DNA from: Bacillota bacterium
Lineage (GTDB): Bacteria > Bacillota > JAAYKD01
Direction: 5' to 3'
DNA length: 64,000 nt
Assembly (NCBI GenBank): GCA_036744005.1
Contig: DAINOJ010000013.1
Coordinates: 10-64,009, forward strand
Shown here: one piece after another, positions 649-38,975 of the stretch
How the letters are laid out: each line of letters begins with the position of its first letter
Position numbering within the stretch: the stretch's first letter is position 1
Program-made: the position numbers and the translations under genes
Notes under the pieces: model-generated
Database searches by the model: none
Told to the model about the DNA's origin: nothing
What the model saw: only the letters and a program-made list of their open reading frames with translations

Positions 649-1983
649 ATGCCGAAAATAATAAGAAAAATACCGCAAAAGACGCGATTGGAACCACCCA
701 AAAAGGTCGCTGCCTATGCGCGTGTTTCGTCTGGAAAGGATGCCATGCTCCACTCGCTATCTTCACAGGTTAGCTATTACAGTAGATTCATACAAAGCCA
801 CGCAGAGTGGCTTTATGTAGGCGTTTATTCTGACGAAGCACTGAGCGGTACGAAGGACAACCGAACCGGGTTCCAAAAACTTCTCGCAGACTGCCGTTCT
901 GGAAAGGTGAACATGATACTGACCAAGTCCATCTCTCGCTTTGCCCGGAACACGGTGACCTTGCTGGAAACCGTCCGCGAGCTCAAGTCGTTGGAGGTGG
1001 ATGTTTTTTTTGAGGAGCAGAGCATCCATACGCTGAGTGCTGAGGGCGAGTTAATGCTGACCATACTTGCATCCTACGCGCAGGAAGAAAGCTTATCCGC
1101 TAGTGAAAATCAAAAATGGCGCGTTCGTAAGGGCTTTGAAAACGGAGAATTGCTCAATTGGCGGTTCCTGTTCGGGTATAGCATTACGAAGGTTGGAATT
1201 GAGATCGATACCACCACTGCGCCGATTGTTCGCGAAATATTTACCCGCGTTATCGACGGAGTGTCCTTAGGAGTGATTAGTAGGAGTCTAAACAGCCGAG
1301 GTGTTTCAGGTGAGCTTGGTGGCAAATGGTGTACCCAGCGTATTCGCGAAATAATTAGTAATGAGAAATATACGGGAAGTGCCATGCTTCAAAAGCACTA
1401 CAGAAATAACCATCTAGAGAAAAAGAAATGCCGTAACACAGGTGAGTTACCCATGTTCTTTGCGGAAGAAACACATCATGCGATCATAGACAAGGAAACC
1501 TTCCTTGTAGCAAATGCTATTTTAAAGGGAATGCAGGAATCAGTCAAAAACAGATCGCGACCACAGAAAAGTGAGTTCACAGGTAAAATCCACTGCCCCT
1601 ACTGTGGGAAAAATTTTAAGCGAAACATCGGTAAATGCACCGTGGGTTGGAACTGCTCCACTTTTCTCGCCAAAGGTAAAACGTATTGTCATGGCAAAAA
1701 AATACCCGAAGCAACCCTACAGGCCATATGTGCCGAGGTTCTTGTAATGGAAACCTACAACTCAGTTATCTTCCAAGAGAGAGTTGAGCGTATTGAAGCT
1801 TCGGAAGACAATTATTTGCTTTTTGTTTTCAAAGACGGTAGCACAGTTGAGCGCACCTGGGCTGACCGCTCACGGCGGGAAAGCTGGACAGCACAAATGA
1901 AGGTAGCAGCAACCGAGCGAATACGCAGCCAAAGGGGGAAAAAACATGCCAAGAGTAACGACAATACCAGCGACAAAAAATAA
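649..1983 (+). CDS. large serine recombinase (resolvase + recombinase + Zn-ribbon domains)
   Basis: VAAYARVSS catalytic motif, LTKSISRFARN, Zn ribbon CPYCG...WNC; RBS AAGGAGGTG. Confidence 0.95.
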   Translation: MPKIIRKIPQKTRLEPPKKVAAYARVSSGKDAMLHSLSSQVSYYSRFIQSHAEWLYVGVYSDEALSGTKDNRTGFQKLLADCRSGKVNMILTKSISRFARNTVTLLETVRELKSLEVDVFFEEQSIHTLSAEGELMLTILASYAQEESLSASENQKWRVRKGFENGELLNWRFLFGYSITKVGIEIDTTTAPIVREIFTRVIDGVSLGVISRSLNSRGVSGELGGKWCTQRIREIISNEKYTGSAMLQKHYRNNHLEKKKCRNTGELPMFFAEETHHAIIDKETFLVANAILKGMQESVKNRSRPQKSEFTGKIHCPYCGKNFKRNIGKCTVGWNCSTFLAKGKTYCHGKKIPEATLQAICAEVLVMETYNSVIFQERVERIEASEDNYLLFVFKDGSTVERTWADRSRRESWTAQMKVAATERIRSQRGKKHAKSNDNTSDKK

Positions 1984-3517
1984 GTTCACTGCACTGCCAA
2001 ACTCAATCAATGCAAAGCGACGCACTGCAGGGTATGCTCGTGTTTCCACGGATAAGGACGAGCAGTTTACCAGTTATGAGGCACAAGTCGATTATTACAC
2101 CAAATACATTCAATCCCGAGAGGACTGGGAGTTCGTAAAGGTTTATACGGATGAGGGGATTTCTGCTTTGAATACGAAACACCGGGAAGGCTTTCAACAG
2201 ATGGTGCGAGATGCCATGGATGGCAAGATAGACCTCATCGTAACAAAATCGGTCAGCCGATTTGCGAGAAACACAGTAGACAGCCTGGTTACCATACGCA
2301 AGCTGAAGGAGAAAGGGGTGGAGTGTTATTTTGAGAAAGAAAACATCTTCACCTTTGATGGTAAAGGCGAGCTGCTTCTCACCATTATGAGTTCTCTGGC
2401 ACAGGAAGAAAGCCGTTCCATTTCAGAAAATGTCACGTGGGGCCATCGCAAACGATTCTCAGATGGCAAGGTCAGCGTCGGTTACTCTCAATTTCTCGGG
2501 TTTACTAAGGGCGAGGATGGAAACCTCAAAGTAGTGCCGGAGCAAGCCGAAACGGTACGACTCATCTATAAGATGTTCCTTGAGGGAAGAACCACACAGG
2601 GCATAGCCAATTACCTTATGGAACACGGCATTCTCAGCCCTGCTAGAAAGAAGACATGGCGGTCATCCACAGTTGCTAGTATCCTCACCAATGAGAAATA
2701 TAGGGGCGATGCACTGCTCCAGAAACGGTTTACCGTTGACTTTTTAACGAAAGAACTACGGGTAAATAATGGTGAAGTACCCCAATATTATGTAGAAAAT
2801 TCACATGAAGCCATTATCGCTCCTGAGGAATATGAAATGGTGCAAGGAGAAATGGCACGGCGTAAGGATCTGGGCAGAGCATACAGCGATAAGGCGTTTC
2901 ACAGTAAAATCATCTGCGGAGAATGTGGTGGTTTCTATGGCCGAAAGATCTGGCATTCCACGGATGAATATAGAAGTGTGATCTTCCAGTGCAATCAGAA
3001 ATTCAAAAACGAGAATAAGTGCACCACACCCAAACTCAGCGAGGAAGAAATCAAACAGCGATTCCTTAAAGCCTACAATGACTTGATGGGCAATCGTTCT
3101 TCGGTGCTTGCTGATTGTGAGCTTATCCGTCAGGTGCTCTGTGAGACCACGACGCTTGATGCCGAATTGCAACACGAGCAAGATGAAATGGTGATTATGT
3201 CAGAGCTCATGCATGCACACATAAAAAAGAATGCGTCCGTTGCTCAGTCGCAGGAAGCCTACGCACTGGAAACAGAACGCATTGAGAAACGCTATAACAC
3301 CGCACTGGAACATTACAATGCTCTAGAAGTAGAGAAAGAGAAGAGGATGCAGAAGAGTAAGGAAATTAGCATTTTCATCACAACGTTGAAAAAACAACCA
3401 CTAACCGTAATGGAATGGAACGATCGACTTTGGATTACACTACTTGACACTGCCACCGTTAATAGAGAAGGTGAGATCGTATTCAAGTTTAAAAATGGTG
3501 TGTTGATGACTGTATAA
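1946..3517 (+). CDS. second large serine recombinase
   Basis: TAGYARVST, VTKSVSRFARN, CGECG...FQC Zn ribbon, C-terminal coiled coil; overlaps the first recombinase. Confidence 0.95.
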   Translation: MPRVTTIPATKNKFTALPNSINAKRRTAGYARVSTDKDEQFTSYEAQVDYYTKYIQSREDWEFVKVYTDEGISALNTKHREGFQQMVRDAMDGKIDLIVTKSVSRFARNTVDSLVTIRKLKEKGVECYFEKENIFTFDGKGELLLTIMSSLAQEESRSISENVTWGHRKRFSDGKVSVGYSQFLGFTKGEDGNLKVVPEQAETVRLIYKMFLEGRTTQGIANYLMEHGILSPARKKTWRSSTVASILTNEKYRGDALLQKRFTVDFLTKELRVNNGEVPQYYVENSHEAIIAPEEYEMVQGEMARRKDLGRAYSDKAFHSKIICGECGGFYGRKIWHSTDEYRSVIFQCNQKFKNENKCTTPKLSEEEIKQRFLKAYNDLMGNRSSVLADCELIRQVLCETTTLDAELQHEQDEMVIMSELMHAHIKKNASVAQSQEAYALETERIEKRYNTALEHYNALEVEKEKRMQKSKEISIFITTLKKQPLTVMEWNDRLWITLLDTATVNREGEIVFKFKNGVLMTV

Positions 3518-3703
3518 AACAAACCAACCTGCAGATAAGTAGGATGGCTTAAAGCCTCCCAGTCAGGTTTAACTTAATCAGTGTGAGGAAACATCAGTAT
3601 TATGAGTTTTTACCTCAAGGCTAGACTAATAACAGAGATCATGGATACTACAGCAAATTTAACTGTGTGCTCCTGCTGGGATTCGTAATCAATTTGTCTT
3701 GAG

Positions 3704-4960
3704 CTAGTTTACAATTTGTTTTATGTACAAAGGTAATAAGTCATTCTCAATGTAGTTGAAAGCATCAATATGGCAATCATTATATCCACAATCTCCCGAT
3801 AAATTCCTTTGAAGATGGCAGCCACCATGACACAGGGGTAAATACTTACAATCTTGACATCTGGAAGGTATGTCTCTGGTTAATTGTTTATAAGATTTTA
3901 TTTGCAGATTCCCGTCTTTTATATAACCAAAATCAGCATCGTCCACTCCGACACCGTTAAAACATTTATATACTTTACAATCCGGACCAACAACAAAACT
4001 CGAATCCGACTCACCCAAGCAAATGATCGAACTCACTGGATTTGGTATTTTGAAACCAAGTTGCAGAGACTTTTCAAAAAGCGATTTTTGATTATCAAAT
4101 TCCTGATTCAATACACTACACTGGTTATATAGATATGTATCTTCCACAAGATGAGCAAAATATACACAAACCCCAGTTTTATTAATGATTAAAGCACCTA
4201 GTTCATCAAGTGCTTTCGAAGCAAAATCGAGATTTCCCTTTGGATAATTAATTCGAATATCGAGCGGGATGTTGTTCTTTACCAACAGATTAGCAACATT
4301 AATCAAGTTGTCATAAGATCCTTGCTTGACTTTATTATGGTTTTCCTTACAACCATCAAAAGTCAACTGAACACCTTTAACAGGTAATTTCTTTAAATCA
4401 TTTAGAACGGTCTCGTTGATCAGGGTGCCATTTGTTATAAATTTGAATCCGTAATTTTTGATTCTGCTCTTGCTTAAAACTTTGCTCACTTCCCATACTG
4501 GGTCCATATTTAAAAATGGCTCCCCACCGATGATATTGACCATTATCCTGTCAAATGCCGATGCTTTTAACCAGTTCTCCAACCATAATGTTACAGACTT
4601 GGTTTTGTTTTCGTCTAAACGAGAGCGGCTTTTCATTGGATTCTGAATACAATAATAACAAGACAGATTGCATTCCATTGTTGTCACTAGCGTTAGAGCA
4701 CCAGCTTTATTTGTATAGGTAGATTTGTTGTAAAAGTATTTTAACTTATAAAAGTCTTCTAGGTGGTCTTCAACAATGTATCCATAGCTAAAAAGTTTTT
4801 TCTGTAGGTCACTTGATAGCCGGTTAATGTGATTATGAATAATCAGGTCATATTCGTCACTTGCTATCGATATAATGCTTTGATTAATGTATGAGAATAA
4901 AAACACCTTGTTCGGGAAATTTGGAAGTATAATTGCTGAACAGTAATTGCTTAATAGGAT
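3704..4960 (-). CDS. radical SAM/SPASM peptide maturase A
   Basis: CNLSCYYC (CxxxCxxC), IIGGEPF, SPASM cysteines (CLGE...VYKC; CQDCKYLPLCHGGC). Start uncertain: GGAGGT is followed 6 nt later by in-frame ATC at 4960; the track's TTG at 4978 lies upstream of this RBS. Confidence 0.9.
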   Translation of the reverse strand: MLLSNYCSAIILPNFPNKVFLFSYINQSIISIASDEYDLIIHNHINRLSSDLQKKLFSYGYIVEDHLEDFYKLKYFYNKSTYTNKAGALTLVTTMECNLSCYYCIQNPMKSRSRLDENKTKSVTLWLENWLKASAFDRIMVNIIGGEPFLNMDPVWEVSKVLSKSRIKNYGFKFITNGTLINETVLNDLKKLPVKGVQLTFDGCKENHNKVKQGSYDNLINVANLLVKNNIPLDIRINYPKGNLDFASKALDELGALIINKTGVCVYFAHLVEDTYLYNQCSVLNQEFDNQKSLFEKSLQLGFKIPNPVSSIICLGESDSSFVVGPDCKVYKCFNGVGVDDADFGYIKDGNLQIKSYKQLTRDIPSRCQDCKYLPLCHGGCHLQRNLSGDCGYNDCHIDAFNYIENDLLPLYIKQIVN

Positions 4961-5009
4961 GTGATTACCTCCCTTCAAAGATAAGTATTATTTAAAGGGA
5001 ACTCTATCA

Positions 5010-5111
5010 TTAAAAAGGGCAATCTACAAAAAGATTAATCATGTTGCAACAGCATAAATCTATATCTACCGGTCCATCAACTATTAATAGGAAACCTTCT
5101 TTGATAATCAT
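5010..5111 (-). CDS. putative RiPP precursor peptide A, 33 aa MIIKEGFLLIVDGPVDIDLCCCNMINLFVDCPF
   Basis: Translated by hand: RBS GAGAGGAGGA (5126-5117), ATG 5111, TAA 5012-5010, TATAAT at 5151-5146; directly upstream of rSAM A on the same strand. Confidence 0.75.
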   Translation of the reverse strand: MIIKEGFLLIVDGPVDIDLCCCNMINLFVDCPF

Positions 5112-5183
5112 TAAAATCCTCCTCTCTATTATTTAGTCAAGTCTTATTATACGAGAAAACCGCTAATGACTTACAAATAATGT

Positions 5184-6110
5184 TTAGTTTGTGAACCTTT
5201 GTAAACGTTTCTCAAATTTTTTTCTCGCTTGTTGTGAATCATAACCGTTTTTAGAGAATTCTTCGGGCAGCCAATCAATTGAATAAGTTATGAGTTCCAA
5301 AATTAGTTTTGTATCCATTTCCTTAAGTAGAATACGATACAGCATTTCATGAGCACATATAATGATTAGACTTGAATAATTTCTTCTAGATTTCAGAATC
5401 TTCCAAAGTGTTTCACGTGCCAAATCTATCTTTCCAGATCTCCATTGGCACTCAGCAAGTAGAATATCCAAGTTCTGAGACGGATAGTTTTTTTGAACCT
5501 CTTCACATAATTTAAGTGCTGAGTTGCTCTGGCCTGTAACTAAGTAACCAAAAATAAGGTTATAACTAGATTGTAATGTGGGATTTAAATCTGCCTTTGA
5601 TTTAAGTTCATCTAAAACGTCATATGTACCGTAATACAATATCTGCAATAAAATTTTCTGATTATGAATTTGAAACAGTTTTCCTTGATCAAGATCACTA
5701 ACTTCATTTATCAGTTCGTCGATGCGAGTAATTAAGTTATGAGACTTGTGAAGTAAATGAGTTATTTCTATAGAGATTAATCTAAACTCCATTTCGTCGT
5801 CCATTTTCGCTTCGCCATCGAGCTTAACAAGGTCTTGTACTTTTTCATATTCATCTAAATCTAAATCAAAATAGTACCTTGAGATAGATTTTTTGATTTG
5901 TTCCTTATTGCTATACATCATTATGTTATCAATGGTCGTATTTAATACGGATGCCAAAACAGGCAACAATTCACTTGCTGGAAGAGTTTTTCCTTGTTCC
6001 CAATTATAAACAGTAGCAAGGGATACCCCCGTCTTCTCTGCTAGATCGTTTGGGGTTAAATCTCTATCTTCTCTTAATTCCCGAATTTTATTTCCAATGT
6101 TTTGTTTCAT
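5184..6110 (-). CDS. XRE-family HTH regulator with helical/TPR-like C-terminal domain (Rgg/RNPP-like architecture)
   Basis: IGNKIRELREDRDLTPNDLAEKTGVSLATVYNWEQG HTH, then about 240 aa rich in helices; RBS AAGGAGG before ATG 6110. Confidence 0.8.
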   Translation of the reverse strand: MKQNIGNKIRELREDRDLTPNDLAEKTGVSLATVYNWEQGKTLPASELLPVLASVLNTTIDNIMMYSNKEQIKKSISRYYFDLDLDEYEKVQDLVKLDGEAKMDDEMEFRLISIEITHLLHKSHNLITRIDELINEVSDLDQGKLFQIHNQKILLQILYYGTYDVLDELKSKADLNPTLQSSYNLIFGYLVTGQSNSALKLCEEVQKNYPSQNLDILLAECQWRSGKIDLARETLWKILKSRRNYSSLIIICAHEMLYRILLKEMDTKLILELITYSIDWLPEEFSKNGYDSQQARKKFEKRLQRFTN

Positions 6111-6310
6111 ATATAACCTCCTTAAACAAAATAGAATATTCTTCAAAATCAGCTTGAATCCCTTCTTTTATAGAAAGTTCAAAAGTATATAAACTGCTCA
6201 AAACTCGAATAATAGTTAGTATAAATGAGTAGTTGGAGAAATGAGTTTATGAACTAATAGTAGGTGAAGAAAGGTTTTAGATAATTATAGAAAAATGGGG
6301 TAATATGAAC

Positions 6311-6338
6311 ATTCAATGTATGATAACATACATTGAAT
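6311..6338. promoter_or_regulatory. 12-bp perfect inverted repeat, candidate operator
   Basis: ATTCAATGTATG-ataa-CATACATTGAAT in the divergent intergenic region. Confidence 0.5.
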
Positions 6339-6556: not shown

Positions 6557-6697
6557 ATGAAACTTATTAGGCTTAATTCTAACGCGAATTCATCTACAAG
6601 TCAATGCTTTACAAACACCTGCCCCACCAATTGCTCCTGTGTTTCGTTTTACCCAAGTTGCCCACCAGATTGTACTTCAGTCAACACCCAACAGTAG
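6557..6697 (+). CDS. putative RiPP precursor peptide B, 46 aa with six Cys (MKLIRLNSNANSSTSQCFTNTCPTNCSCVSFYPSCPPDCTSVNTQQ)
   Basis: Strong RBS GAAGGAGGTG then ATG 6557; first gene of the operon containing rSAM B; Cys-free leader and Cys/Ser/Thr-rich core. Confidence 0.85.
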   Translation: MKLIRLNSNANSSTSQCFTNTCPTNCSCVSFYPSCPPDCTSVNTQQ

Positions 6698-6791: not shown

Positions 6792-7241
6792 TTGCTAGAA
6801 ACCAGATTAACAAAATCAAGGCAGGAATTTGAAGAATTATTAGAATATATGTATAAGAATAAATTATTCATTGCTGATAGATTCAAAACCGAATGCATAG
6901 AATCTTTTCAGGATTTTATAAAGAATTTGCTCTGTTATTCAATAATTGAAACAGAAAATGAAAGTGTGGTTGGATGCATTGTAATCTTAAATCTTGATTC
7001 TTGGAACCATAGAGCTGAAATTAGATTTACCTATTATTTATATATTGAAGACACTGCCATTCTTGATATTTTCAATAAGTTTTTCTTTTTTGAGCTAAAT
7101 CTACATAGAATATATTGGATAACAGAGAAATGCAAAGTTTCTGCTTTTGAGAAGCTCCATGCATTTTTTGAAGGCGAATATATACAAGATAGCGTTAAGT
7201 ATTGTTTCTATTCGATGGTTGGGAAAAATCGTGTTTACTAA
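6792..7241 (+). CDS. RimJ/RimL-type GNAT-fold protein 1 (divergent)
   Basis: NLDSWNHRAEIRF and ELNLHRIYW...FFEG segments; RBS AGGAGG, TTG start. Confidence 0.6.
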   Translation: MLETRLTKSRQEFEELLEYMYKNKLFIADRFKTECIESFQDFIKNLLCYSIIETENESVVGCIVILNLDSWNHRAEIRFTYYLYIEDTAILDIFNKFFFFELNLHRIYWITEKCKVSAFEKLHAFFEGEYIQDSVKYCFYSMVGKNRVY

Positions 7242-7292
7242 AAAAGCAATTTTATTATAATATTAAATAGACTAAACTCATAACTCAGTGAG

Positions 7293-7742
7293 GTGTTTTT
7301 GTTGATTAATTTGGTGAATTTAAGCGAGTTAAATAAAATCGTCTTAGGAAATCGTAGGGCTTGGGTATATTCGCAATTTCCGCGAATCCCTACAGGGTAT
7401 GTTGAACGGCCTAATTTCCCACTCTCTGCTCTAAAATGGCAAGGTAAACATGGAAATATCCTCCTCATAATAATGGATGTTGAATTAACTTATGGCCAAG
7501 CTGAATTATGCTTTTTTGACTTTATAGGTAAAATCACAAGCGATGATGTTAAAAGATTTTGTGACTATTTTGGTAATTCGTTTGCTATAAGTCAGATAAG
7601 AACAACCATTCCAAAAAACGACGATTATATTGATGTTTTGCTTTCTGCGGGATTTAACCATGTTGCTTTCATGCAAGATCATATTTGTATATCACTAAAC
7701 ACTTACATAAATGCAGAAATATTAAATTATAAACTGATGTGA
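7293..7742 (+). CDS. RimJ/RimL-type GNAT-fold protein 2 (divergent)
   Basis: YGQAELCF, VLLSAGFNHVAFMQDHI resemble the RimL-type C-terminal GF..E motif; sits inside the operon. Confidence 0.5.
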   Translation: MFLLINLVNLSELNKIVLGNRRAWVYSQFPRIPTGYVERPNFPLSALKWQGKHGNILLIIMDVELTYGQAELCFFDFIGKITSDDVKRFCDYFGNSFAISQIRTTIPKNDDYIDVLLSAGFNHVAFMQDHICISLNTYINAEILNYKLM

Positions 7743-7757
7743 AGGAGACTGGCATGA

Positions 7758-9065
7758 ATGAATTACTTCAATAATAGAAAAAGCAATTTTACTATCAGGC
7801 AAAAACTTAACGAAAAAGAAACTTTGATACATAATACAAGTTCAAATACGTTGATCATTGTTGAAAATGAAGTTTATGAAAGATTTGAAAAATGTAATTG
7901 GAGCATATCTGAGCAAGAACGTTGGATAGAAGGCGGTTTTCTTATCGAAGACGAATTAGATGAGAGGGAGGATTTACTAAATCGATTTATTAGTGCAAGA
8001 AACTATTCGGATTTATCGTTAACAATCTGTCCTACTCTGGGCTGCAATCTACGGTGCGGTTATTGTTATGAGGATTCACAAAGTAAAATTGAATTCATGA
8101 GCGATTCCGTTGCAGATGAAATAGTAAGCTACGTTGAAAAAAATAAATTTGAGAATTTAGTGTTGACGTGGTATGGCGGAGAACCACTATTAGCATTAAG
8201 TAGAATTTTAGAGTTGCAAGAAAGGTTAAAATCCAAAACAAATAAAATTATATCAAGCATGATAACTAATGGTGTCCTCCTTACTAAGAAGACTTTCGAC
8301 GATCTAATAGTAGCGGGAGTAGGGCGGTTTCAGATTACAATTGATGGATCGAAATTTTACCATGACCTAAGAAGAATCACACCTAGCGGCGGAGGGACTT
8401 TTGATGTAATTACTCAGAATCTTCGTGATATAAATTGCGATCCGAAATATCTATCAATAAGAGTAAACATTGATAAAGAAAATAAAGAAGGCTTCATATC
8501 TCTATTAGAGTATTTTGATGAAGACCCTATTCTACGCAAATACTTAAGTATAATTTACCCTGCTCCAGTTACAGCTTGGTCCATTCTGCCAAATAACTGG
8601 ACTGAAAAATGCTTGGGTAATAAAGAGTATGCAGAGTTTTATTTTGATCTAAGTGATTTAGTTTATGAGCGGTATAGTATTAATTTAGTAAAAATTCCAG
8701 AATCAAAAAATATGTATTGTGGTGCTACAGTAAAGAATCATTTTGTTATTGGTCCAAAAGGTGAATTATACAAATGCTATATAACTGTTGGTGATACCAG
8801 TACAATTGTAGGTTATATAAATGGTGAAAATAAAGATGTTCTAAATAAAGAGGAATTGAGATTTTGGGATCAATGGAACCCCTTTAATAATGATAAATGT
8901 TATAATTGTCAGTTTCTCCCTCTATGTATGGGTGGTTGTCCGGGCTTAACCCATATAGCCAAAAAAAACCATGAGGACCAATGTTTTCAAATGAAAAGTT
9001 ATTATATAGATACAGTATCAAGGTCAATCCGCGGTGACTTAAATGAAATTAATGCAAGCGAGTAG
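7758..9065 (+). CDS. radical SAM/SPASM peptide maturase B
   Basis: CNLRCGYC, WYGGEPLL, SPASM (YCGA...LYKC; CYNCQFLPLCMGGCP...C), N-terminal extension consistent with an RRE. Confidence 0.93.
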   Translation: MNYFNNRKSNFTIRQKLNEKETLIHNTSSNTLIIVENEVYERFEKCNWSISEQERWIEGGFLIEDELDEREDLLNRFISARNYSDLSLTICPTLGCNLRCGYCYEDSQSKIEFMSDSVADEIVSYVEKNKFENLVLTWYGGEPLLALSRILELQERLKSKTNKIISSMITNGVLLTKKTFDDLIVAGVGRFQITIDGSKFYHDLRRITPSGGGTFDVITQNLRDINCDPKYLSIRVNIDKENKEGFISLLEYFDEDPILRKYLSIIYPAPVTAWSILPNNWTEKCLGNKEYAEFYFDLSDLVYERYSINLVKIPESKNMYCGATVKNHFVIGPKGELYKCYITVGDTSTIVGYINGENKDVLNKEELRFWDQWNPFNNDKCYNCQFLPLCMGGCPGLTHIAKKNHEDQCFQMKSYYIDTVSRSIRGDLNEINASE

Positions 9066-9549
9066 TTACGATGAATTGCTAAGTATAGCAAAACTTTATG
9101 AAAAACCTGAATATCTGAAATTCGCTGCTCAAAGTAAATACACTAATACTCAGATTCTTATAACCATATTCGATGAAGAGGTAAGAAAAGGTAATAACTT
9201 TTATTATGTAGGATACTATAAAAAAGAACCTGCAGTTGTTTTTGCTTTGAGAAACGTTTCAAGGTATAATAAAAGTGCTGAACTTCATATTGTTTTTATA
9301 ATTGAAAATGAAAGTTATAGATTTCTCTATATCGGTATCAAAGAGATGTACAGAATTGCATTTGATGAGCTACGTCTGAGAAAGCTTTATGGTCAAACAC
9401 CAAAATGGAATAACGGTTTAATAGGAATTTTATTGCTTACAGGAGCTGCTATAGTTGGGGAATTTGAGAAAGGAATATTTCACGATGGTATTTATAGTCC
9501 AAATGTGATATTGGAAATATTGAATCAAGATAATAAGTTTAGAAAGTGA
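9043..9549 (+). CDS. RimJ/RimL-type GNAT-fold protein 3
   Basis: VSRYNKSAELHI, AFDELRLRKLYGQTPKWN, GEFEKGIFHDGIY; overlaps the rSAM B stop. Confidence 0.7.
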   Translation: MKLMQASSYDELLSIAKLYEKPEYLKFAAQSKYTNTQILITIFDEEVRKGNNFYYVGYYKKEPAVVFALRNVSRYNKSAELHIVFIIENESYRFLYIGIKEMYRIAFDELRLRKLYGQTPKWNNGLIGILLLTGAAIVGEFEKGIFHDGIYSPNVILEILNQDNKFRK

Positions 9550-9550
9550 G

Positions 9551-10012
9551 ATGACTAATATGCTCATTATGCAAACAGATCGTCAAGAGGTTCTTAACAA
9601 ATGGAAAAGTCGGTTATCTATAAACGATTTAAGTGATAATGAAATCGGTGATTATTATGGAACCTTAGACAATATTAAGGTTATGATAAGACCTTTAATA
9701 GTTAACAATAAATCTGAAGTTGACATAGAAAACGTTAATTTTTTTGTTACAACTAATCATGATCTTAATGAAAATCAGATTAGTTTAGTCCTTGAAGGTG
9801 CTAAAGCCTATTTGCCTATTGTTTATCGATGGTTAGAAGATGAAAAGAGAATCCACAACAATATTCAAATTGTTAATCAGTTAGAACGTGAGTCAACGAT
9901 AAGAAAATTAACAGTCGAAATACCTAGTAAAATCGAACCGGATTTTCTAATAGGTATAAATGCGTTGACTAGGTATATTTTAGCGAGCGAGTTTTATGGC
10001 AAACAGGTATAG
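9551..10012 (+). CDS. hypothetical protein in the RiPP operon
   Basis: 153-aa ORF starting 2 nt after the previous stop; no recognised motif. Confidence 0.6.
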   Translation: MTNMLIMQTDRQEVLNKWKSRLSINDLSDNEIGDYYGTLDNIKVMIRPLIVNNKSEVDIENVNFFVTTNHDLNENQISLVLEGAKAYLPIVYRWLEDEKRIHNNIQIVNQLERESTIRKLTVEIPSKIEPDFLIGINALTRYILASEFYGKQV

Positions 10013-10167
10013 TATTAAAAATTTAATGTTTTTAGAAACACTATATTAACCCTTTCATTTTAACATTAGATTCTAAAGAAGTATGAAGGCAAAATGATTT
10101 TTTGAGTATGCTTCGAACTACAAATTCAAGACGTATAAACTTTTGAAATTTCGAGGAGGCGCATATT

Positions 10168-10848
10168 ATGGGAAACCAAATTGTAGCAATCAAAGGGGAT
10201 AGATTACGCCGGGTCTTCCATCTGGGAGATCAGGAAGTTCGTGCATTAGATGAGATCAACATTGAAGTGTATCAGGGGGAGCTTGTCATGCTCCTTGGCC
10301 CTTCGGGTTCGGGAAAAACAACTCTTTTGCATACCTTGTCTGGTTTAGATGCACCGGATCGAGGAGAAGTTTTCGTAGACGACGTGTCAATCTATAAACT
10401 GAATGATAATAAGTTATCTCATTTACGTAGTCGGTCTTTCGGTTTCGTTTTTCAGTCGTTTAACTTATTACCAAACCTGACTGCCTTAGAAAATGTGCAG
10501 ATTCCGTTACGCATAACAGGGCAAGACAATCCAGTCGAGAAATCAATGGAAATGCTCAAGCGTGTGGGCTTGGGCGACCGGGCACACCACCGACCAGGAC
10601 AACTCTCGGGAGGAGAACAACAGCGAGTCACCGTAGCTCGAGCCTTAGTATCAAAACCAAAAATTGTCTTTGCCGATGAACCGACCGGAAACTTAGATTC
10701 CGTGACCAGCATGGAGATCATGAATCTGCTGAAGGAAATGGTCCATGAAAACAACTCGGCATGTTTAATGGTTACTCACAATGCTGAAATGGTTCCGTTA
10801 GCAAATCGGGTTTTATACTTAAGAGACGGGAAAATGGTAAATAAGTAA
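10168..10848 (+). CDS. ABC transporter ATP-binding subunit (LolD/MacB-type)
   Basis: GPSGSGKT, LSGGEQQR, ADEPTGNLD, VTH. Confidence 0.95.
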   Translation: MGNQIVAIKGDRLRRVFHLGDQEVRALDEINIEVYQGELVMLLGPSGSGKTTLLHTLSGLDAPDRGEVFVDDVSIYKLNDNKLSHLRSRSFGFVFQSFNLLPNLTALENVQIPLRITGQDNPVEKSMEMLKRVGLGDRAHHRPGQLSGGEQQRVTVARALVSKPKIVFADEPTGNLDSVTSMEIMNLLKEMVHENNSACLMVTHNAEMVPLANRVLYLRDGKMVNK

Positions 10849-10869
10849 AACCGAAGGGAGAAAATTCCG

Positions 10870-11943
10870 ATGTTCAAACTCTCGGTAAAACTCATTCAAT
10901 GGAATCTCACCAGGAATCGACTGCAGTTATTGATTATGGTATTAGCGGTGATAGGTTCTTTAAGCAGCTATGTACTTTTAGGTACAGCACTAAACGAAAT
11001 GTCAGATAAAGTTGTGGATGTGCAAAGGTCGGACTGGCCATTTGACATTGAGATTATTGGTAATATTGATGATGAAGAAATGAAAAAAATCATGAGCATA
11101 CCAGGTGTGAAATATATGGAAGAAGTATACACAACTGAAGCTTTTGTTTATTCTAGCGAAATGGAGTTTTTGCTGATACCTAAAGAAGATACTAAAGTAA
11201 TCATTGAAATGGAAGCTGGAAATCTACCGAACAATGCGAACGAGGTCGCAATATCGGGGAAATTAGCAGTAGCTTATCAATTAAATGTTGGAGATCGTTT
11301 AAAAGTATTGCCGGGGATATCTGTTCTTCCTATTGATTACGAAATATCTGGAATAGTGAGTAGTAAAAAAGGTGTCGTTACAAAACTACTACTCAATGAA
11401 GAAGGATACCTTAGACAAACATCGCTTTTTGGTAAAAAAGCAATACAGTTGGATGGGAAAGTCGATATTGGTTTTGTTGTAGACGAATTAAAGAAGGTCG
11501 ACGCCGGATACCTCATTAAAAAATATGAAGAGAATTATACCAATACAAAAAACAGTCTAGGGTTGTCCGATACTATGGTAATGAGTTTACGTTTCTTAAT
11601 ATTGGGAATCACAGCAACCTCGTTAGCAGTTTTGCTCTATATTGGTCAGCGTAGTGGTGCATATCAGACAGGTGTCTTATTAGCTATGGGAATAAAAAAA
11701 CCATGGTTAATGCTTCCTACCATAAGCCAAACGACAATCACTTTCCTCATTGGATTTTTAGCAACGTCTGCCATTTTACCAATCGTATCGAAATCCTTGG
11801 GATTAGTAACAGAACCATTCGATATCTTGTGGACGTTAGTAAAAGATATAGCGGTTTATTATGGAGTTGGCATGCTCAGTACGTTAATCATTACTATGCA
11901 ATTTTTAGGAACACCTATTCCTAAATTACTCAAAGACTCTTAG
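10870..11943 (+). CDS. ABC permease, FtsX/MacB-like
   Basis: N-terminal TM, large extracellular domain, three C-terminal TMs, GVLLAMG motif. Confidence 0.85.
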   Translation: MFKLSVKLIQWNLTRNRLQLLIMVLAVIGSLSSYVLLGTALNEMSDKVVDVQRSDWPFDIEIIGNIDDEEMKKIMSIPGVKYMEEVYTTEAFVYSSEMEFLLIPKEDTKVIIEMEAGNLPNNANEVAISGKLAVAYQLNVGDRLKVLPGISVLPIDYEISGIVSSKKGVVTKLLLNEEGYLRQTSLFGKKAIQLDGKVDIGFVVDELKKVDAGYLIKKYEENYTNTKNSLGLSDTMVMSLRFLILGITATSLAVLLYIGQRSGAYQTGVLLAMGIKKPWLMLPTISQTTITFLIGFLATSAILPIVSKSLGLVTEPFDILWTLVKDIAVYYGVGMLSTLIITMQFLGTPIPKLLKDS

Positions 11944-11962
11944 ATACTGAGGAGGTGATCCT

Positions 11963-13177
11963 ATGCTTTGGATGACATTCGTGTCTTTTCGGCGAAATCT
12001 TCATAATTACTCCTTAGCCATTATTGGGTTAGCTCTTGCAGTCTTAGTGAGCTGCATAGGATTGAGTGGGTTGGGCATGCTTCAGGATTTCGCCTTAGTA
12101 CCTTTACGATTTTTGTTTGGAGAAAATGTTATTATTGCCGATGCAAGAACCGAAATCAAGACCACATCTACAATGATTTATGCTGATCCACTCGATATTA
12201 AACCATTCTCGGCAACGCTTGTAAACTCTTTTTTAGAAGAAGTAGCACCTGGCACCAAACTGGAAAAGGTTCTCATTGCTCCATATAGGATGCGAGATGG
12301 GTGGAGCTATGTTGCCGGAAGAATGAACCCAGATGAGAAAATAAGAAAATACATATATAGTTCGGATGTAACAGAAGGAGTTTTTAGCGACAGTTATGAA
12401 AAAATCTATCTTGCAACCGATCAGAGGTTTAAAAACAATAATGGAGAGATTAGCAGCCCTCTGTTGTACTTAGGTGCTGGAGATTATATGAATTTAACCG
12501 TACCAACGATTACTACCGAAAAAAACGGTTATGATTGGTCGATACCAAATCTGGCAAAAAAACAAGTTCAGGTTCAAAGTTTATATGACTCCTCCAGTGT
12601 TATGTATATGGTTGATTGGGTCAAGTTGGATGTTCTTCAGCAACTCGTTGGTGGGAATGAACCAGTATCTTTTATTTCTGTTGAATGTCCTTTAAACAAA
12701 ATGGACGAATTAAAGAATACTCTGGTGACTCGAATGGAAGAGGAAAATTTTCCTTTGCAGGTTTGGACAATTTATGATGTCGGGGAATTACTGTACGGGG
12801 ACTTTGAGCGATTTGAAGTGATGGCTGACTATTATGTTCCGGTAATGATGTTTGTTTCCGTTCTTATTGTGCTCGTCAATTCGATTGCATTGACGTTATC
12901 GCGCCGTAAAGAGCTTGCATTAATGCGTATCGTTGGATTCAGCCAAATACAGATACAAATGATGTTTGTTGCTGAATGTATCATAATTGCACTTCTTGGA
13001 GGTTTATTGGGAACCGGGATCGCTGGGTTTATTTCGATGCAATTCACTAACACATTTAGTGTTAATTGGTTACCGTATATCATTGCTTTAGTTTCTACTG
13101 CGGTTGTAAGTACGATTACTACCATTTTGCTGACCAAAGGAAGTTTAGCAAGCATTATGAGAAATCCGGTTGAGTAA
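11963..13177 (+). CDS. ABC permease, FtsX/MacB-like
   Basis: RRKELALMRIVGFS FtsX motif, same topology as the previous permease. Confidence 0.9.
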   Translation: MLWMTFVSFRRNLHNYSLAIIGLALAVLVSCIGLSGLGMLQDFALVPLRFLFGENVIIADARTEIKTTSTMIYADPLDIKPFSATLVNSFLEEVAPGTKLEKVLIAPYRMRDGWSYVAGRMNPDEKIRKYIYSSDVTEGVFSDSYEKIYLATDQRFKNNNGEISSPLLYLGAGDYMNLTVPTITTEKNGYDWSIPNLAKKQVQVQSLYDSSSVMYMVDWVKLDVLQQLVGGNEPVSFISVECPLNKMDELKNTLVTRMEEENFPLQVWTIYDVGELLYGDFERFEVMADYYVPVMMFVSVLIVLVNSIALTLSRRKELALMRIVGFSQIQIQMMFVAECIIIALLGGLLGTGIAGFISMQFTNTFSVNWLPYIIALVSTAVVSTITTILLTKGSLASIMRNPVE

Positions 13178-14441: not shown

Positions 14442-14620
14442 CGTGTGCACAAAGCAAACGGAACAAACGGGAATAAGGCTACCAGGTGCATTTTGTATCA
14501 AACTCGTGTCCTTCTCCAAAAAAATCAGCACACCAACGCGGTGTGCTGATTTTTTTGGTGGAGGGAACCCGTAGCCAATGTTTGCATTGGCGAAGCTCTG
14601 GCAATTAAAAGCGTTTGCGA
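14442..14620. repeat. structured repeat element, copy 1
   Basis: 14442-14573 aligns ungapped to 33596-33727 with 8 mismatches in 132 nt; 19-bp perfect hairpin 14516-14558; 7-bp hairpin plus GAAGC at 14574-14596. Confidence 0.9.
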
Positions 14621-14727
14621 AGCACAATGCGGAATTGCTGGAGTCCACCATCACAGTATTATACGAACTTCTTCTATTTCAAAGGAGGCTTTGCCTTCAC
14701 AATCATGCTGGAAAACTGCATAAAAGA

Positions 14728-14765
14728 AGCAACTCGGGAGTGACTCCGAGTTGCTCTCTTTTTTT
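14728..14765 (+). terminator. intrinsic terminator-like hairpin
   Basis: AGCAACTCGG...CCGAGTTGCT followed by CTCTTTTTTT. Confidence 0.55.
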
Positions 14766-16533: not shown

Positions 16534-19500
16534 ATGAAAATCCAGAATATGTTCAAAAAGGATATCAACCGCGACATCAATGGTGTGATCAAGGTCGCAC
16601 AGGATGATGAACAGAGTCTTATTCAGGAACTCAGCGAGTATATCATCACCAAAGAACTCCGACGCCTCTTTGAAACTTTTTTTCATAACTACACGAAAGC
16701 GATTGATCACCCAACTGACAAAATAGGTGTTTGGATCTCAGGTTTCTTTGGAAGTGGTAAATCCCATTTCTTGAAAATGCTTTCCTACCTTCTCTCAAAC
16801 CCTGAAGTTGACAAGAAAAGCACCATTAGTTTCTTTAAAGATAAATTCGAAGACCCTATGATGTATGCTTCGATTGTCCGTTGTACGAATATCCCCACAG
16901 AATCAATCCTCTTTAACATCGATATTGAAGGGCCAATAAAGAAAGATAAGACCGCTGTCTTGCGTGTGTTTACCAAGGTGTTTTATAACCATCTTGGATT
17001 CTATGGCGAAGACTTAAAAATCGCCAAACTGGAGCGCTTCATCGAGAAGAAAGGGTTGACCGAGACTTTCCGCAAAGTGTTTGAACAAATAAATGGTTCG
17101 CCTTGGACGGAAGCCAGAGCTTCCTATGCGTTTTTCGAAGATGACATTGTTACGGTTCTGCAAAGAACACTTGATATGAGCGAAACGGCTGCCCGTAACT
17201 GGTTCAACGGAGAAGAGAACCAAGATATGAGCATTAAGCAACTCGTAGAGGAAATTAAAGAATACGTCGATTCAAAGGGTAAGGATTTTAGACTCCTATT
17301 TTGTGTGGACGAAGTCGGTCAATACATTGGGGACGATAGTGACTTAATGATCAATCTTCAATCCATTGTCGAAGAAGTGGGTAGCAAATGCCAGGGAAAA
17401 GTCTGGGTTATGGTGACCAGCCAGGAAGCCATCGACTCGGTAGTGAAAATCAGTGGCGATGATTTCTCAAAGATTCAAGGGCGTTTTAACACTCGCTTAT
17501 CCTTGTCCTCCGCTTCGGTGGATGAGGTGATTAAGAAGCGTATACTCGAAAAAACAGAGGACGCAGAGGCTCTTCTTCGTATGGTTTACGATAGAGAACA
17601 TGCCGTTTTAAAGAATCTCTTTACCTTCAATGAATCCGTATTAGATATCAAGGGTTATGCCGACAGCGCTGAGTTCACATCAACCTATCCTTTTGTTCCA
17701 TACCAATTCATCATCATTCAAAAAGTCCTTGCGGAGATCCGCAAACACGGCAATGCAGGTAGGCATCTCTCTGGCGGAGAGCGCTCCATGCTTTCAGGAT
17801 TCCAGGAAGCAGCACAAAAAATTCAGAACAAAGATGAGAATGCACTTGTATCTTTCTCGCAATTCTATGATACCGTACATACCTTTCTTGAAAGTCCGAT
17901 TCGCCGAGTCATTGACCGTTGTCAAACAGCGGCCGATAAACATGACGGCTTAGAACAGCGGGATGTGCGCGTTCTAAAATTGCTTTACCTTATTCGCTAC
18001 ATCGACGACTTTAAGGCGAACATTGATAATATCTCTACTTTAATGATAGAAGATATCCGCACAGATAAGATTACTTTACGTCGTGAAATCGCCGAAAGCT
18101 TGGAACGCTTAGTACGCCAAAACTATGTTGCGCGACATGGCGATAGCTACTCCTTCTTAACGGATGAGGAGCAAGATGTAGCAACCGACATTCGCAACAC
18201 ACCTGTTGATACAGCAACCATTGTACAGAGTATTGGTCAGACCATCTTTAACGAGATCTATTCCTCAAAGAAGTTTAAATATAACAAATATGACTTCTCC
18301 TATGACCAGTATATCGATGAATACATGATCGGAACTGCATCGGGTGGAGTACGCTTGCGTTTGGTAACCGTGGTCAGCGATTATTATAATGCTCCTGAAG
18401 CTAAGCTTATTATGGATTCAAAGATTAACAACGAAGCGATTGTAGTATTATCGGGTGAGACTCATTATTTTGAAGAACTTGAGACTGCTGCCAAAATACG
18501 CAAATACATTAAGCAGAAGAACGTGTCTCAGCTACCTGAAAGCATTCAGGATATCATCCGCAAACGCCAAGCACAGGCACGCGTGTTAGAAGAAAGCGCG
18601 AGAACACAGATAGACAAAGCGATTGTTGGTAGTAGCTTCTTTATTCATGGGGAGAAAGCCGAAATCAAATATGGAGATGCCAAGAGTAAATTGGATGAAG
18701 CACTAAAGCAACTCATCGATAGTGTCTACTCAAAGTTGAGCCAGGTTAACACCTTCAGCGATAGTGATGCCGATATTTTAACGATACTCAACAGCTCCCC
18801 TCAGCAAATCGGTTTTTCTGGCACTGGTTCCAATAATGAATATGCCTTAAACGAGATTAGCCAATGGCTCGAAGATCGTTATTTAAGTCATGTACCTGTT
18901 TCCATGGGTGATGTTCATCGTAGATACCAAGCAATACCCCATGGTTGGCGTGAAATCGATATCGCAGCGCTCGTAGCAAGACTCATCGTTGCACAAAGAA
19001 TTGAAATCCGTTACGGGGGTGCTGCAGTTAGTAAAGAGGATAAAAACATTGTCCGATACCTCCGGGCAAAATCAGAGATTGACAAAGCAAGCGTCAGTCG
19101 AAGAATCTCGCCCTCAGAAGACGACATGCGTAAAGTTGTTAAGTTCCTCCGTGATTGGCTTGGGAAGATGAATATACCCGAGGATGAAGATGGACTCTTA
19201 TACTATATTAAAGAGACTTTTAATACCAAGCTTGCTCACTATGAGAATCTACTGGTTGAATACAATCATTTCAATTACCCAGAGAAAGACGTAGTGCTTA
19301 AAGCACAAGCCCTTATTGTGGAAATATTTTCTCAGAGATCGGATAATGTTGCTCTATTGAAGAAGCTTCTTGTAAAACAAGATGATTTGCGTGATATCAC
19401 TGATGACATGGAAGACATTGAAACCTTCTTTCGATCTCAGAGAGACATTTTTGATTCTGCACAAAAATTATACGCCAGTCTGCAGAACGAATTGGATTAT

Positions 19501-20052
19501 TTTGCTTCGATCCAAAGCACGAATGAGAAAATTAGAGAAGTTGCTGCTATCATTGCCATGAAAAAGCCCTATAATAGAATAAAGGACTTATCTGAATTGA
19601 TGCAGAGCATAAAAGTTGCATATGAGTCCTTGCTCAAGCAAAAGAAAGACGAAGTTCTGGGCATCATACAGCAATGTATGGGGGACATCCACACACTGGC
19701 AGGAGCCGGTAACAAGGTAAAAAATGAAGTAAATCAGTCAGATGAGCGATTCGTTGATTACAAACAAAGAACGAACAAAGCTACTAGTCTCACCATGTTG
19801 GATGCAATGGTCACGCAAATGCTCAACTATAAGGACCATATATGTAGAAGAATGGAAGCAATGATAAGTGTAGAAGCCCCTGTTAAACCTGGAGAGACGT
19901 TACAGAAGCTTAGGATTTCGCAAGTACGCCGCTATGAAATTTTCCCAACCAAACGACTGACCACACAAGCAGAGGTCGACACCTACCTTGAATCGATACG
20001 GAAAAAGCTAATCGAGATTTTACAAGCGAATGACGGAATCCAAATAACCTAG
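16534..20052 (+). CDS. brxC: BREX P-loop ATPase BrxC
   Basis: WISGFFGSGKSH Walker A, VDEVGQY Walker B, KIQGRF, YPFVPYQ. Confidence 0.95.
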   Translation: MKIQNMFKKDINRDINGVIKVAQDDEQSLIQELSEYIITKELRRLFETFFHNYTKAIDHPTDKIGVWISGFFGSGKSHFLKMLSYLLSNPEVDKKSTISFFKDKFEDPMMYASIVRCTNIPTESILFNIDIEGPIKKDKTAVLRVFTKVFYNHLGFYGEDLKIAKLERFIEKKGLTETFRKVFEQINGSPWTEARASYAFFEDDIVTVLQRTLDMSETAARNWFNGEENQDMSIKQLVEEIKEYVDSKGKDFRLLFCVDEVGQYIGDDSDLMINLQSIVEEVGSKCQGKVWVMVTSQEAIDSVVKISGDDFSKIQGRFNTRLSLSSASVDEVIKKRILEKTEDAEALLRMVYDREHAVLKNLFTFNESVLDIKGYADSAEFTSTYPFVPYQFIIIQKVLAEIRKHGNAGRHLSGGERSMLSGFQEAAQKIQNKDENALVSFSQFYDTVHTFLESPIRRVIDRCQTAADKHDGLEQRDVRVLKLLYLIRYIDDFKANIDNISTLMIEDIRTDKITLRREIAESLERLVRQNYVARHGDSYSFLTDEEQDVATDIRNTPVDTATIVQSIGQTIFNEIYSSKKFKYNKYDFSYDQYIDEYMIGTASGGVRLRLVTVVSDYYNAPEAKLIMDSKINNEAIVVLSGETHYFEELETAAKIRKYIKQKNVSQLPESIQDIIRKRQAQARVLEESARTQIDKAIVGSSFFIHGEKAEIKYGDAKSKLDEALKQLIDSVYSKLSQVNTFSDSDADILTILNSSPQQIGFSGTGSNNEYALNEISQWLEDRYLSHVPVSMGDVHRRYQAIPHGWREIDIAALVARLIVAQRIEIRYGGAAVSKEDKNIVRYLRAKSEIDKASVSRRISPSEDDMRKVVKFLRDWLGKMNIPEDEDGLLYYIKETFNTKLAHYENLLVEYNHFNYPEKDVVLKAQALIVEIFSQRSDNVALLKKLLVKQDDLRDITDDMEDIETFFRSQRDIFDSAQKLYASLQNELDYFASIQSTNEKIREVAAIIAMKKPYNRIKDLSELMQSIKVAYESLLKQKKDEVLGIIQQCMGDIHTLAGAGNKVKNEVNQSDERFVDYKQRTNKATSLTMLDAMVTQMLNYKDHICRRMEAMISVEAPVKPGETLQKLRISQVRRYEIFPTKRLTTQAEVDTYLESIRKKLIEILQANDGIQIT

Positions 20053-20064
20053 AGGAAGTGAACC

Positions 20065-23523: not shown

Positions 23524-23531
23524 GGAGGAAC

Positions 23532-26129: not shown

Positions 26130-26147
26130 GGAAAGGAGGGTTCTGCT

Positions 26148-33595: not shown

Positions 33596-33775
33596 CGTGT
33601 GCACAAAGCAAACGGAACAAACGGGAGCAAGGCTACCGGGTGCATTTTGTATTAAACTCATGTCCTTTTCCAATAAAATCAGCACACCAACGCGGTGTGC
33701 TGATTTTATTGGTGGAGGGAACCCGTAAGCATTCCGCAGGAATGCGAAGCAAGCGCACTTGTTAGCGTTTTCGAA
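33596..33775. repeat. structured repeat element, copy 2
   Basis: Direct repeat of 14442-14573; 19-bp hairpin 33670-33712 with a compensatory pair; GCATTCC-gca-GGAATGC plus GAAGC. Confidence 0.9.
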
Positions 33776-38080: not shown

Positions 38081-38090
38081 GAGGTGGACC

Positions 38091-38969: not shown

Positions 38970-38975
38970 GCCATT

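Follow-up and report, generated by a model that had tools for sequence, protein, structure and literature searches.

The question raised by this locus is whether a 33-codon open reading frame (ORF), lying between the gene for a helix-turn-helix (HTH) regulator and the gene for a radical S-adenosylmethionine (rSAM) enzyme with a SPASM domain, encodes the peptide on which that enzyme acts. The ORF (5111..5010, minus strand) is located in a stretch of 64,000 nucleotides (nt), positions 10 to 64,009 of contig DAINOJ010000013.1 (assembly GCA_036744005.1) of a Bacillota bacterium, which was analysed at its full length and is called the window. A preliminary description had proposed the product of the ORF as the substrate of the enzyme, rSAM A, and had suggested that conserved small ORFs be sought upstream of rSAM A homologues. 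Here we report a comparative analysis of the ORF, the enzyme and the adjacent regulator, and propose, with a probability of roughly three in four, that the ORF encodes the precursor of a ribosomally synthesised and post-translationally modified peptide (RiPP), whose sole dedicated maturase is the rSAM/SPASM enzyme encoded directly downstream. The assignment of the peptide as substrate of rSAM A is strongly supported by the anatomy of the maturase and by co-conservation of the two genes over a range of 94% to 31% rSAM identity.

DNA was gathered for each close relative of rSAM A, of which few exist, by look-ups of the encoding contigs and by scans of sequence collections; a single-protein scan of reference genome contigs returned no close relatives, and the alignment-based scan alone found L005. 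The small ORF that had been asked for was present throughout: in every relative with upstream DNA (31-94% rSAM identity), a collinear peptide gene was found directly 5' of the rSAM gene, on the same strand and in the same register, and each of the homologous peptide genes is preceded by a Shine-Dalgarno sequence of the GGAGG type. The relatives fall into six lineages, comprising the window/L041 type, the L001 type, L003, the L005/L010/L012 type with L043, and L011, for which the C-terminal end only is available.

The peptide of the window is MIIKEGFLLIVDGPVDIDLCCCNMINLFVDCPF, and that of L041, in which the whole block is 88% identical at the DNA level, is MIIKEGFQLMVDGPLDIDLCCCNMLNLFVDCPFR. 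The peptide reads MVIHKGFQLLVDSLVNVDYGCCETENFYVQRPQ in L001, L002 and L007-L009 (rSAM 66% identical to that of the window) and MILVKGFDLEVEGPIDVELGCCHNYDFYVVRPV in L003 (61%). At 31% rSAM identity, L005 and L010 encode MLLRAGYDLKVDQPTLVGFGCCGLMGYEVQQVELILP[AP]NS, and L012 encodes the same peptide up to residue 31, followed by ...IELVLPVNP. L043, whose rSAM was compared with the L005 type (75%) and not with the window, encodes MLLRAGYDLRVDEPTLVGFGCCGFMGYEVQQIDFLIPLKP, and the cut contig L011 (rSAM 32% identical to that of the window) retains ...YEVMQIDIFKPITA. Seven residues (M1, G6, L9, V11, C21, C22 and V29) are identical in all variants. Position 7 holds F or Y, position 12 D or E and position 27 always F, L or Y, and position 28 is usually hydrophobic or aromatic. 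Residues 23-26 and the C-terminal tail vary freely, and close variants of the window peptide differ mostly at positions 24-26 and in the tail. Cys21 and Cys22 are kept in all 11 variants, and codon 20, the first Cys of the triplet in the window, specifies Gly in the other lineages. The Cys-Cys-Cys and C-terminal DCPF that the preliminary description had singled out are thus retained in the window's own lineage (P0049-P0052), but as a family feature only the Cys21-Cys22 pair holds; as read from the alignments, the family motif is G/C-C-C together with a conserved leader, and not CCC with DCPF.

The pattern of nucleotide substitution was compared within two pairs. The peptide genes of L005 and L012 differ by 16 synonymous and 4 replacement changes (proportions of synonymous and nonsynonymous sites that differ, pS and pN, of 0.60 and 0.04), and all 4 replacements are within the last nine residues. 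Between the window and L041 there are 8 synonymous and 4 replacement changes (pS 0.44, pN 0.05), the corresponding values for the flanking genes being 0.34 and 0.08 for the regulator and 0.18 and 0.03 for the rSAM, so that the constraint on the peptide is at least as great as that on its neighbours. Judged by these substitutions, the peptide gene is real, translated and under purifying selection, with a ratio of nonsynonymous to synonymous change (dN/dS) far below 1. It is also specific to the rSAM A clade, since rSAM enzymes at about 27% identity or less are accompanied by other precursors, namely unrelated upstream peptides, and by LytTR two-component regulators. A family profile with the 40-residue L005 peptide as its first sequence retrieved only four clusters among 5.8 billion proteins, and no Pfam or NCBIfam model matched any family peptide, even at E<=10. 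By these comparisons, peptide and enzyme appear to form an undescribed precursor-rSAM family, outside all named families compared. The exact 33-residue sequence is already present, without a name, in the NCBI, ENA and Logan assembly protein collections, and the ORF is a called gene on an identical ENA contig; the earlier statement that it is unannotated is correct only for the ORF list from which the preliminary description was made.

Considered by itself, a 33-codon ORF is uninformative in this DNA, where 46 ORFs of at least 20 residues were counted in 3.3 kb. The strong ribosome-binding site claimed earlier was confirmed as AGGAGG (Table 1), and so was the TATAAT without a consensus -35, the best -35-like hexamer being TTGTAA, 19 nt from the TATAAT. 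A scan of the region for consensus promoters gave 8 sites against 16.4 in shuffled sequence, showing no enrichment, and the promoter call therefore carries no statistical weight. Given that neither the ORF size nor the promoter scan is informative, the case for a peptide gene rests on the comparative evidence, and it is conservation that lifts the ORF above chance. The promoter region TATAATAAGA is kept in L041; AAGTCATTAGC, conserved 5' of the -10, is no commoner in the window than in shuffles. The 72-nt spacer between regulator and peptide holds no convincing inverted repeat, and an Rfam scan of the window gave no match. Translation ends at TAA, TGA and TAG in succession. The peptide has a net charge of about -4, and inspection of residues 1-19 (MIIKEGFLLIVDGPVDIDL) for a Sec-type signal revealed no basic n-region followed by a long hydrophobic h-region. 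An attenuator hairpin between peptide and rSAM A was considered for the window and rejected, the weak TCCCTT/AAGGGA pairing not being kept in L041; in L001 and L007, a clear terminator-like hairpin lies between the peptide and rSAM genes.

Residue numbers in rSAM A are counted from TTG at 4978, where the mechanically determined ORF begins; the public gene call starts at GTG 4906. The protein carries the radical-SAM motif C103-x3-C107-x2-C110 (Pfam Radical_SAM, 3.6e-13) and a SPASM domain (NCBIfam TIGR04085, 42 bits, cutoff 27) with seven conserved cysteines (C320, C339, C374, C377, C383, C387 and C402). In the AlphaFold2 (AF2) model, which has a predicted local distance difference test score (pLDDT) of 85, residues 13-88 form strands 13-16, 24-29 and 34-39 and helices 40-47, 56-64 and 72-88. 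This N-terminal domain resembles in its predicted fold the PqqD-like RiPP recognition element (RRE); Pfam PqqD did not match rSAM A at E<=0.01, so the RRE assignment is one from predicted structure only. The top Foldseek matches of the enzyme were CteB, TigE, SuiB, anSME and SkfB, with the alignment to CteB covering the full length, and CteB (5wgg) was also the best solved structure by sequence (E 4e-19). The best full-length NCBIfam models were those for geopeptide, CefB, TIGR04463, Clo7bot and PapB maturases, all matched far below their cutoffs. Outside the 50%-identity cluster to which rSAM A belongs, no rSAM reaches 37% identity with it, and an exhaustive search of 1.84 billion representatives returned that cluster, then six clusters at 167-249 bits, then a continuum at or below about 151 bits; from these scores the rSAM A clade appears small and separate from the general SPASM continuum. 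A phage or viral origin was considered and set aside, as no match was found in viral contigs, nor in phage records at blastn sensitivity.

The start of rSAM A seems to be non-canonical. It is ATC in the window (4960..4958, minus strand) and in L041 and ATT in L003 (167..169), in each case 7 nt past GGAGG or GGAGAG and in exact alignment with the ATG of the L005 homologue (6001..6003). In L003, 88 codons of the conserved rSAM N-terminus contain no ATG, GTG or TTG.

A maturation pathway of the following kind would be consistent with these features. The N-terminal half of the peptide, M-[ILV]-[IL]-x-x-G-[FY]-x-L-x-V-[DE]-x-[PL] (residues 1 to about 19), appears strand-prone and would act as a leader, docking as a beta-strand on the RRE-like N-terminal domain of rSAM A. 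Cys21 and Cys22 would be the reactive residues, a Cys thiolate binding the open iron site of the first auxiliary cluster, as in CteB-type enzymes, and a nearby residue of segment 23-29 would lose a hydrogen atom to the 5'-deoxyadenosyl radical. One or two small rings closed by thioethers (sactionine or ranthionine) would result, with positions 27-28 and Val29 making up the remaining scaffold. Transcription from the promoter lacking a -35 would be governed by the adjacent regulator, the apparent AUC start might hold the enzyme at a low level relative to its precursor, and leader removal and export would be left to machinery outside the module. For the chemistry itself, thioether formation is the most economical guess, at about even odds, because of the two adjacent invariant cysteines and the CteB-like seven-Cys SPASM pattern.

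Several points weigh against this proposal. The chemistry is deduced from invariant cysteines and distant homology, and rSAM A stays far below the cutoffs of all models for named thioether synthases (PapB, 88 against 340 bits; SCIFF maturase, 58 against 425; CcpM, 70 against 500; lachnocin, 40 against 550). The candidate acceptors in the window, Asn26 and Asp18, are not conserved, both being Gly in the L005 type and position 26 being Tyr in P0051; the ranthionine motifs CX3[N/D] and [D/E]xxC, visible in the first three sequences as Cys22-x3-Asn26 and Asp18-x-x-Cys21, were rejected for this reason. Genes for a protease, an exporter or immunity are missing from the minimal module, whereas secreted antimicrobial RiPPs usually come with them. 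Among the fold neighbours, SuiB forms a Lys-Trp link and anSME oxidises Cys to formylglycine, reactions unrelated to thioether formation. A further neighbour, TigE, makes cyclopropylglycine from valine (PMC10878394). As these enzymes catalyse different reactions, the fold alone leaves the chemistry unfixed.

The closest competitor, possible but clearly less favoured, keeps the peptide as substrate of rSAM A and replaces the thioether by another product: Cys oxidation, a C-C or C-O cross-link at the aromatic positions 27-28, epimerisation, or cyclopropylglycine at Val29 or Val11. It draws on the fold search, in which TigE (the Val cyclopropyl synthase), SuiB and anSME score close to CteB, on the invariance of both valines and the constant F, L or Y at position 27, and on the same unmatched models and missing Asp/Asn-type acceptor that weaken the thioether proposal. 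An adjacent, invariant Cys pair in an otherwise variable core is nevertheless most simply explained as the reacting groups. By sequence and by fold alike, CteB, which makes thioethers, remains the best match, the NCBIfam models that fit best all describe maturases of Cys-rich peptides, and the seven-Cys SPASM pattern would fit an open coordination site, as judged from the CteB literature.

The setting of the precursor-enzyme pair was then compared among lineages. By blastn, positions 9986-12637 of L041, a different genome, align with 6125-3486 of the window as a single block of 88.4% identity, and in L041 this block has transposase genes on both sides. The distant lineage has the same three genes between mtaB and an aminotransferase gene, a site shared by L010 and L043; in the L005 lineage the regulator gene follows the rSAM gene in convergent orientation, and the housekeeping context is dnaK-dnaJ-prmA-rsmE-mtaB. 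The L001 lineage adds typical RiPP-cluster genes, namely a PqqD-type RRE protein, a second rSAM, a SPASM protein and an ABC exporter; no such regulator was present within its approximately 3 kb of upstream DNA, the downstream genes not having been screened for one. GC content falls to 31-34% across the module and the adjoining rSAM B cluster of the window, a low-GC island against about 42% in most of the window, and the module is accessory, being missing from the close relative L033, low in GC and flanked by insertion sequence (IS) elements or recombinases.

Several observations concern the borders of the module. The tandem large serine recombinase genes of the window are convergent with rSAM A; homology with L041 extends into the 3' end of the second of these genes and stops at 3486, and L006 diverges at 3568. 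A short repeated element, with copies 75-98% identical, occurs twice in the window (Table 1), in L033 (5949..6022 and 10037..10163) and in L006 (1441..1581). Its copies mark the loss of synteny with the window, just past the regulator in L033 and just past rSAM A in L006, and the element may mediate gain or loss of the peptide-rSAM cassette.

The regulator matches Pfam HTH_3 (1.6e-12) and, weakly and below its cutoff, TPR_19 (5.8e-4), and no Rgg-family model of Pfam or NCBIfam matched it. Its AF2 model (pLDDT 89) is all-helical, an HTH being followed by a helical repeat domain. Foldseek placed PlcR-PapR (3u3w, 2qfc), Rgg2, ComR and PrgX at the top, with a probability of 1.00 and template-modelling (TM) scores of only 0.2-0.39, and the predicted fold is accordingly graded as PlcR/Rgg/ComR-like, that is, of the RRNPP type. 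The regulator and the peptide gene are neighbours in the window, L041, L005, L010 and L043 (L012 was left out of the comparison), and the L005 regulator is a full-length homologue of that of the window (27% identity, E 2e-34). Beside the regulator, no conserved small ORF other than the peptide itself and no shp-like gene were found. In L032-L034, from a closely related genome, the regulator is 87% identical and the shared DNA 88-99% identical, and the peptide-rSAM A pair is missing, as is the rSAM B cluster; the regulator homologues of L035, L036 and L039 (41-54% identity) likewise stand without such a peptide or rSAM in their vicinity. These regulators without a peptide, together with L001 and its lack of an upstream regulator, indicate that the peptide follows the enzyme strictly and the regulator only loosely. 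In L032-L034, the regulator gene (5001..5930) is divergent from an adjoining ABC/357-residue/FtsX operon. As it is kept there without the rSAM clusters, the regulator may also, or originally, control the ABC/FtsX transporter.

The distant lineage carries a direct repeat, GTAA[AG]AAGTTACTA, in two copies spaced by 22 nt that directly adjoin the -35 of the peptide promoter on its upstream side (L005, about 5745..5790; L043, 5878..5925; also L010 and L012). It has been retained despite saturated synonymous divergence and is, on its position and conservation, a plausible activator site and a candidate site for the regulator of that lineage.

The preliminary description had suggested that the product is a modified signalling peptide. 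If the regulator sensed the peptide, and did not merely switch its gene, the locus would be a quorum-sensing module, with the product of rSAM A, whole or in part, as autoinducer of the adjacent regulator, which would then activate the peptide-rSAM promoter. Much of the arrangement is suggestive of this. The predicted fold of the regulator is nearest to the peptide-bound receptors PlcR, Rgg2, ComR and PrgX; in the window and L041 the small peptide gene follows the receptor gene by 72-77 nt on the same strand, and a receptor gene followed by a peptide gene is the layout of plcR-papR and comR-comS, the classic RRNPP systems. The module consists of exactly three genes, without exporter, protease or immunity gene, in unrelated contexts, and a homologous regulator stands beside the peptide-rSAM pair even at 31% rSAM identity. 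Close peptide variants differ chiefly at positions 24-26 and in the tail, in the manner of pherotypes, and the promoter lacks a -35, as do activator-dependent promoters. The distribution of the genes counts in part against it: regulator homologues at 87% and at 41-54% identity occur without peptide or rSAM, none is seen in the approximately 3 kb upstream in L001 (with the downstream limit given above), and that of the L005 lineage lies beyond the rSAM in convergent orientation. By inspection, the peptide lacks a Sec-type signal, and we know of no RRNPP receptor that binds a radical-SAM-modified ligand. In the known streptococcal cases, a distinct peptide, the SHP pheromone, is what the regulator senses, and the RiPP is produced in response (PMC13361665). 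RiPP clusters are the biosynthetic class most often found beside candidate RRNPP systems (PMC10075063). We regard an autoinducing role as possible but unlikely. Slightly less likely still is its fullest form, a mobile, self-contained communication module in which an RRNPP receptor would sense an rSAM-cross-linked pheromone with positions 23-26 as specificity code; if true, an enzymatically modified ligand would be a first among RRNPP systems.

We consider it improbable that the peptide has an intracellular role, be it a housekeeping one like that of SCIFF or the supply of a redox cofactor such as pyrroloquinoline quinone (PQQ) or mycofactocin. SPASM enzymes do make PQQ and mycofactocin from peptides of similar size, the minimal module lacks genes for export, proteolysis and immunity, and in the L005 lineage it is stable among housekeeping genes. 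The core at 23-26 and the tail vary, however, even among close relatives, whereas cofactor precursors are normally invariant at the reacting end; further tailoring enzymes are not present, the module is accessory, and the L001 lineage has an ABC exporter. That the ORF is a chance untranslated frame in AT-rich intergenic DNA, as the abundance of small ORFs and the lack of a Pfam or NCBIfam match might suggest, is effectively refuted by the predominance of synonymous changes; in addition, the frame keeps its length, register and Shine-Dalgarno sequence, with nine to ten conserved residues, even where the partner enzymes are only 31% identical.

Table 1. Positions of the features of the module and of other loci in the window.
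Feature	Coordinates	Strand	Remarks
Module (regulator, peptide, rSAM A)	6125..3486	-	2.65-kb conserved block
Regulator	6110..5184	-	308 residues; XRE-type HTH plus TPR-like helical domain; RRNPP-like predicted fold
TATAAT, -10-like	5151..5146	-	34 nt 5' of the ATG, within the 72-nt spacer from regulator stop to ATG; putative function
Shine-Dalgarno AGGAGG	5123..5118	-	6 nt 5' of the peptide ATG; from sequence
Precursor peptide gene	5111..5010	-	33 codons plus TAA; from translation
Proposed leader	5111..5055	-	Codons 1-19
Proposed core	5054..5013	-	Codons 20-33
Cys-Cys-Cys	5054..5046	-	Codons 20-22, TGC TGT TGC; from alignments and comparison of 11 variants
Cys-Cys	5051..5046	-	Codons 21-22; family-invariant, proposed modification site
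rSAM A	4960..3704	-	Radical-SAM/SPASM peptide maturase; proposed start ATC at 4960
Tandem large serine recombinases	649..3517	+	444 and 523 residues; Resolvase, Recombinase, Zn-ribbon
Short repeated element	14503..14761; 33670..33727
Segment missing from L033	6194..10156
Perfect 12-nt inverted repeat	6311..6338		ATTCAATGTATG, 4 nt, CATACATTGAAT
Second RiPP-like operon, first ORF	6557..6697	+	46 residues, 9 Cys; MKLIRLNSNANSSTSQCFTNTCPTNCSCVSFYPSCPPDCTSVNTQQ
Second RiPP-like operon, further genes	6792..13177	+
rSAM B	7758..9065	+	Best model TIGR04463, 251 bits against cutoff 525
BREX-type defence locus	16534..28223	+	BrxC (1172 residues), PglX-like methyltransferase (1152), PglZ (865), BrxL (691)
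PLD-family nuclease-like protein	28470..30464	+	Follows the BREX-type locus
Gene trio	37022..40664	+	352, 292 and 562 residues; the last with a MutL/Hydantoinase_A-like domain

Other loci of the window were also recorded. A second, divergent RiPP-like operon lies on the far side of the regulator, where the Cys-rich 46-residue ORF is followed by genes for two 149-residue proteins, rSAM B, proteins of 168 and 153 residues, an ABC ATPase, a 357-residue protein and an FtsX permease. The perfect inverted repeat between the regulator and this operon is outside the L041-conserved block and could be an operator or a terminator. Further along, the trio of 352, 292 and 562 residues recurs beside the regulator homologues of L035, L036 and L039 and at the end of the L001 cluster, a recurrence that suggests a shared chromosomal neighbourhood which received RiPP and defence islands.

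If the precursor reading holds, the locus defines an undescribed family of rSAM-modified peptides with a conserved leader, an invariant Cys-Cys and a variable four-residue loop. The family is compact, with one peptide and one enzyme that could be reconstituted in E. coli, and precursor-rSAM pairs of this sort have repeatedly given new cross-link chemistry. The linkage of the three genes would also provide a simple, non-streptococcal system in which to ask whether PlcR/Rgg-like regulators merely switch RiPP operons or sense the modified product. Its practical value is modest, that of a genome-mining lead from uncultured anaerobes and not of an answer to an open problem.

Among known systems, CteA/CteB, the SCIFF peptides (ranthipeptides) and PapA/PapB share with the present pair a short Cys-containing precursor encoded 5' of one rSAM/SPASM maturase of about 420-450 residues with a fused N-terminal RRE, and SCIFF cassettes are likewise minimal, without exporter or protease. 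CteB is the best match both by sequence (5wgg) and by fold (5why/5wgg), yet rSAM A is only 17-19% identical to it in the structural alignment and falls far below the SCIFF-maturase and PapB cutoffs given above. The precursors differ as well, CteA, SCIFF and PapA having six spaced cysteines or CX3D repeats, whereas the present peptides have two adjacent cysteines and match no precursor model; moreover, in contrast to CteA/CteB, an RRNPP-like regulator belongs to the module here. The geopeptide (TIGR04280), CefB (NF038107), TIGR04463 and Clo7bot (TIGR04334) maturases, the best full-length profiles of rSAM A (E 4e-47 to 7e-38), are likewise rSAM/SPASM enzymes paired with short Cys peptides. rSAM A reaches 130-161 bits against their cutoffs of 400-600 and is therefore a member of none, and as the products of these four families are uncharacterised, they give no information on the chemistry.

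In regulation, the likeness is to other systems. PlcR-PapR and ComR-ComS also combine an HTH and tetratricopeptide repeat (TPR) regulator of about 300 residues with a small peptide gene following on the same strand; their propeptides are unmodified and rely on general export and processing, whereas a dedicated rSAM follows the peptide here, the peptide co-varies with the enzyme and not with the regulator, and the TM scores to solved receptors are low. The streptococcal Rgg/SHP-controlled radical-SAM RiPPs (RaS-RiPPs: streptide, tryglysin, streptosactin and NxxC, among others) have an RRNPP regulator beside a precursor and an rSAM/SPASM maturase. Their families are defined by a short conserved core motif, 16 of which have been described, and GCC is not among them (PMC13361665). 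The present system differs further in that no Rgg model matches its regulator, no shp-like gene lies beside it, the minimal module has no transporter, and the host is a Clostridia-like anaerobe from digester and bioreactor metagenomes. By analogy, the system works like an rSAM RiPP operon under an RRNPP-type regulator, and is an undescribed set of parts of a known kind and not a new kind of system; by the enzyme and the size of the cassette it stands nearest to CteA/CteB and SCIFF, by its regulatory logic to the streptococcal RaS-RiPPs.

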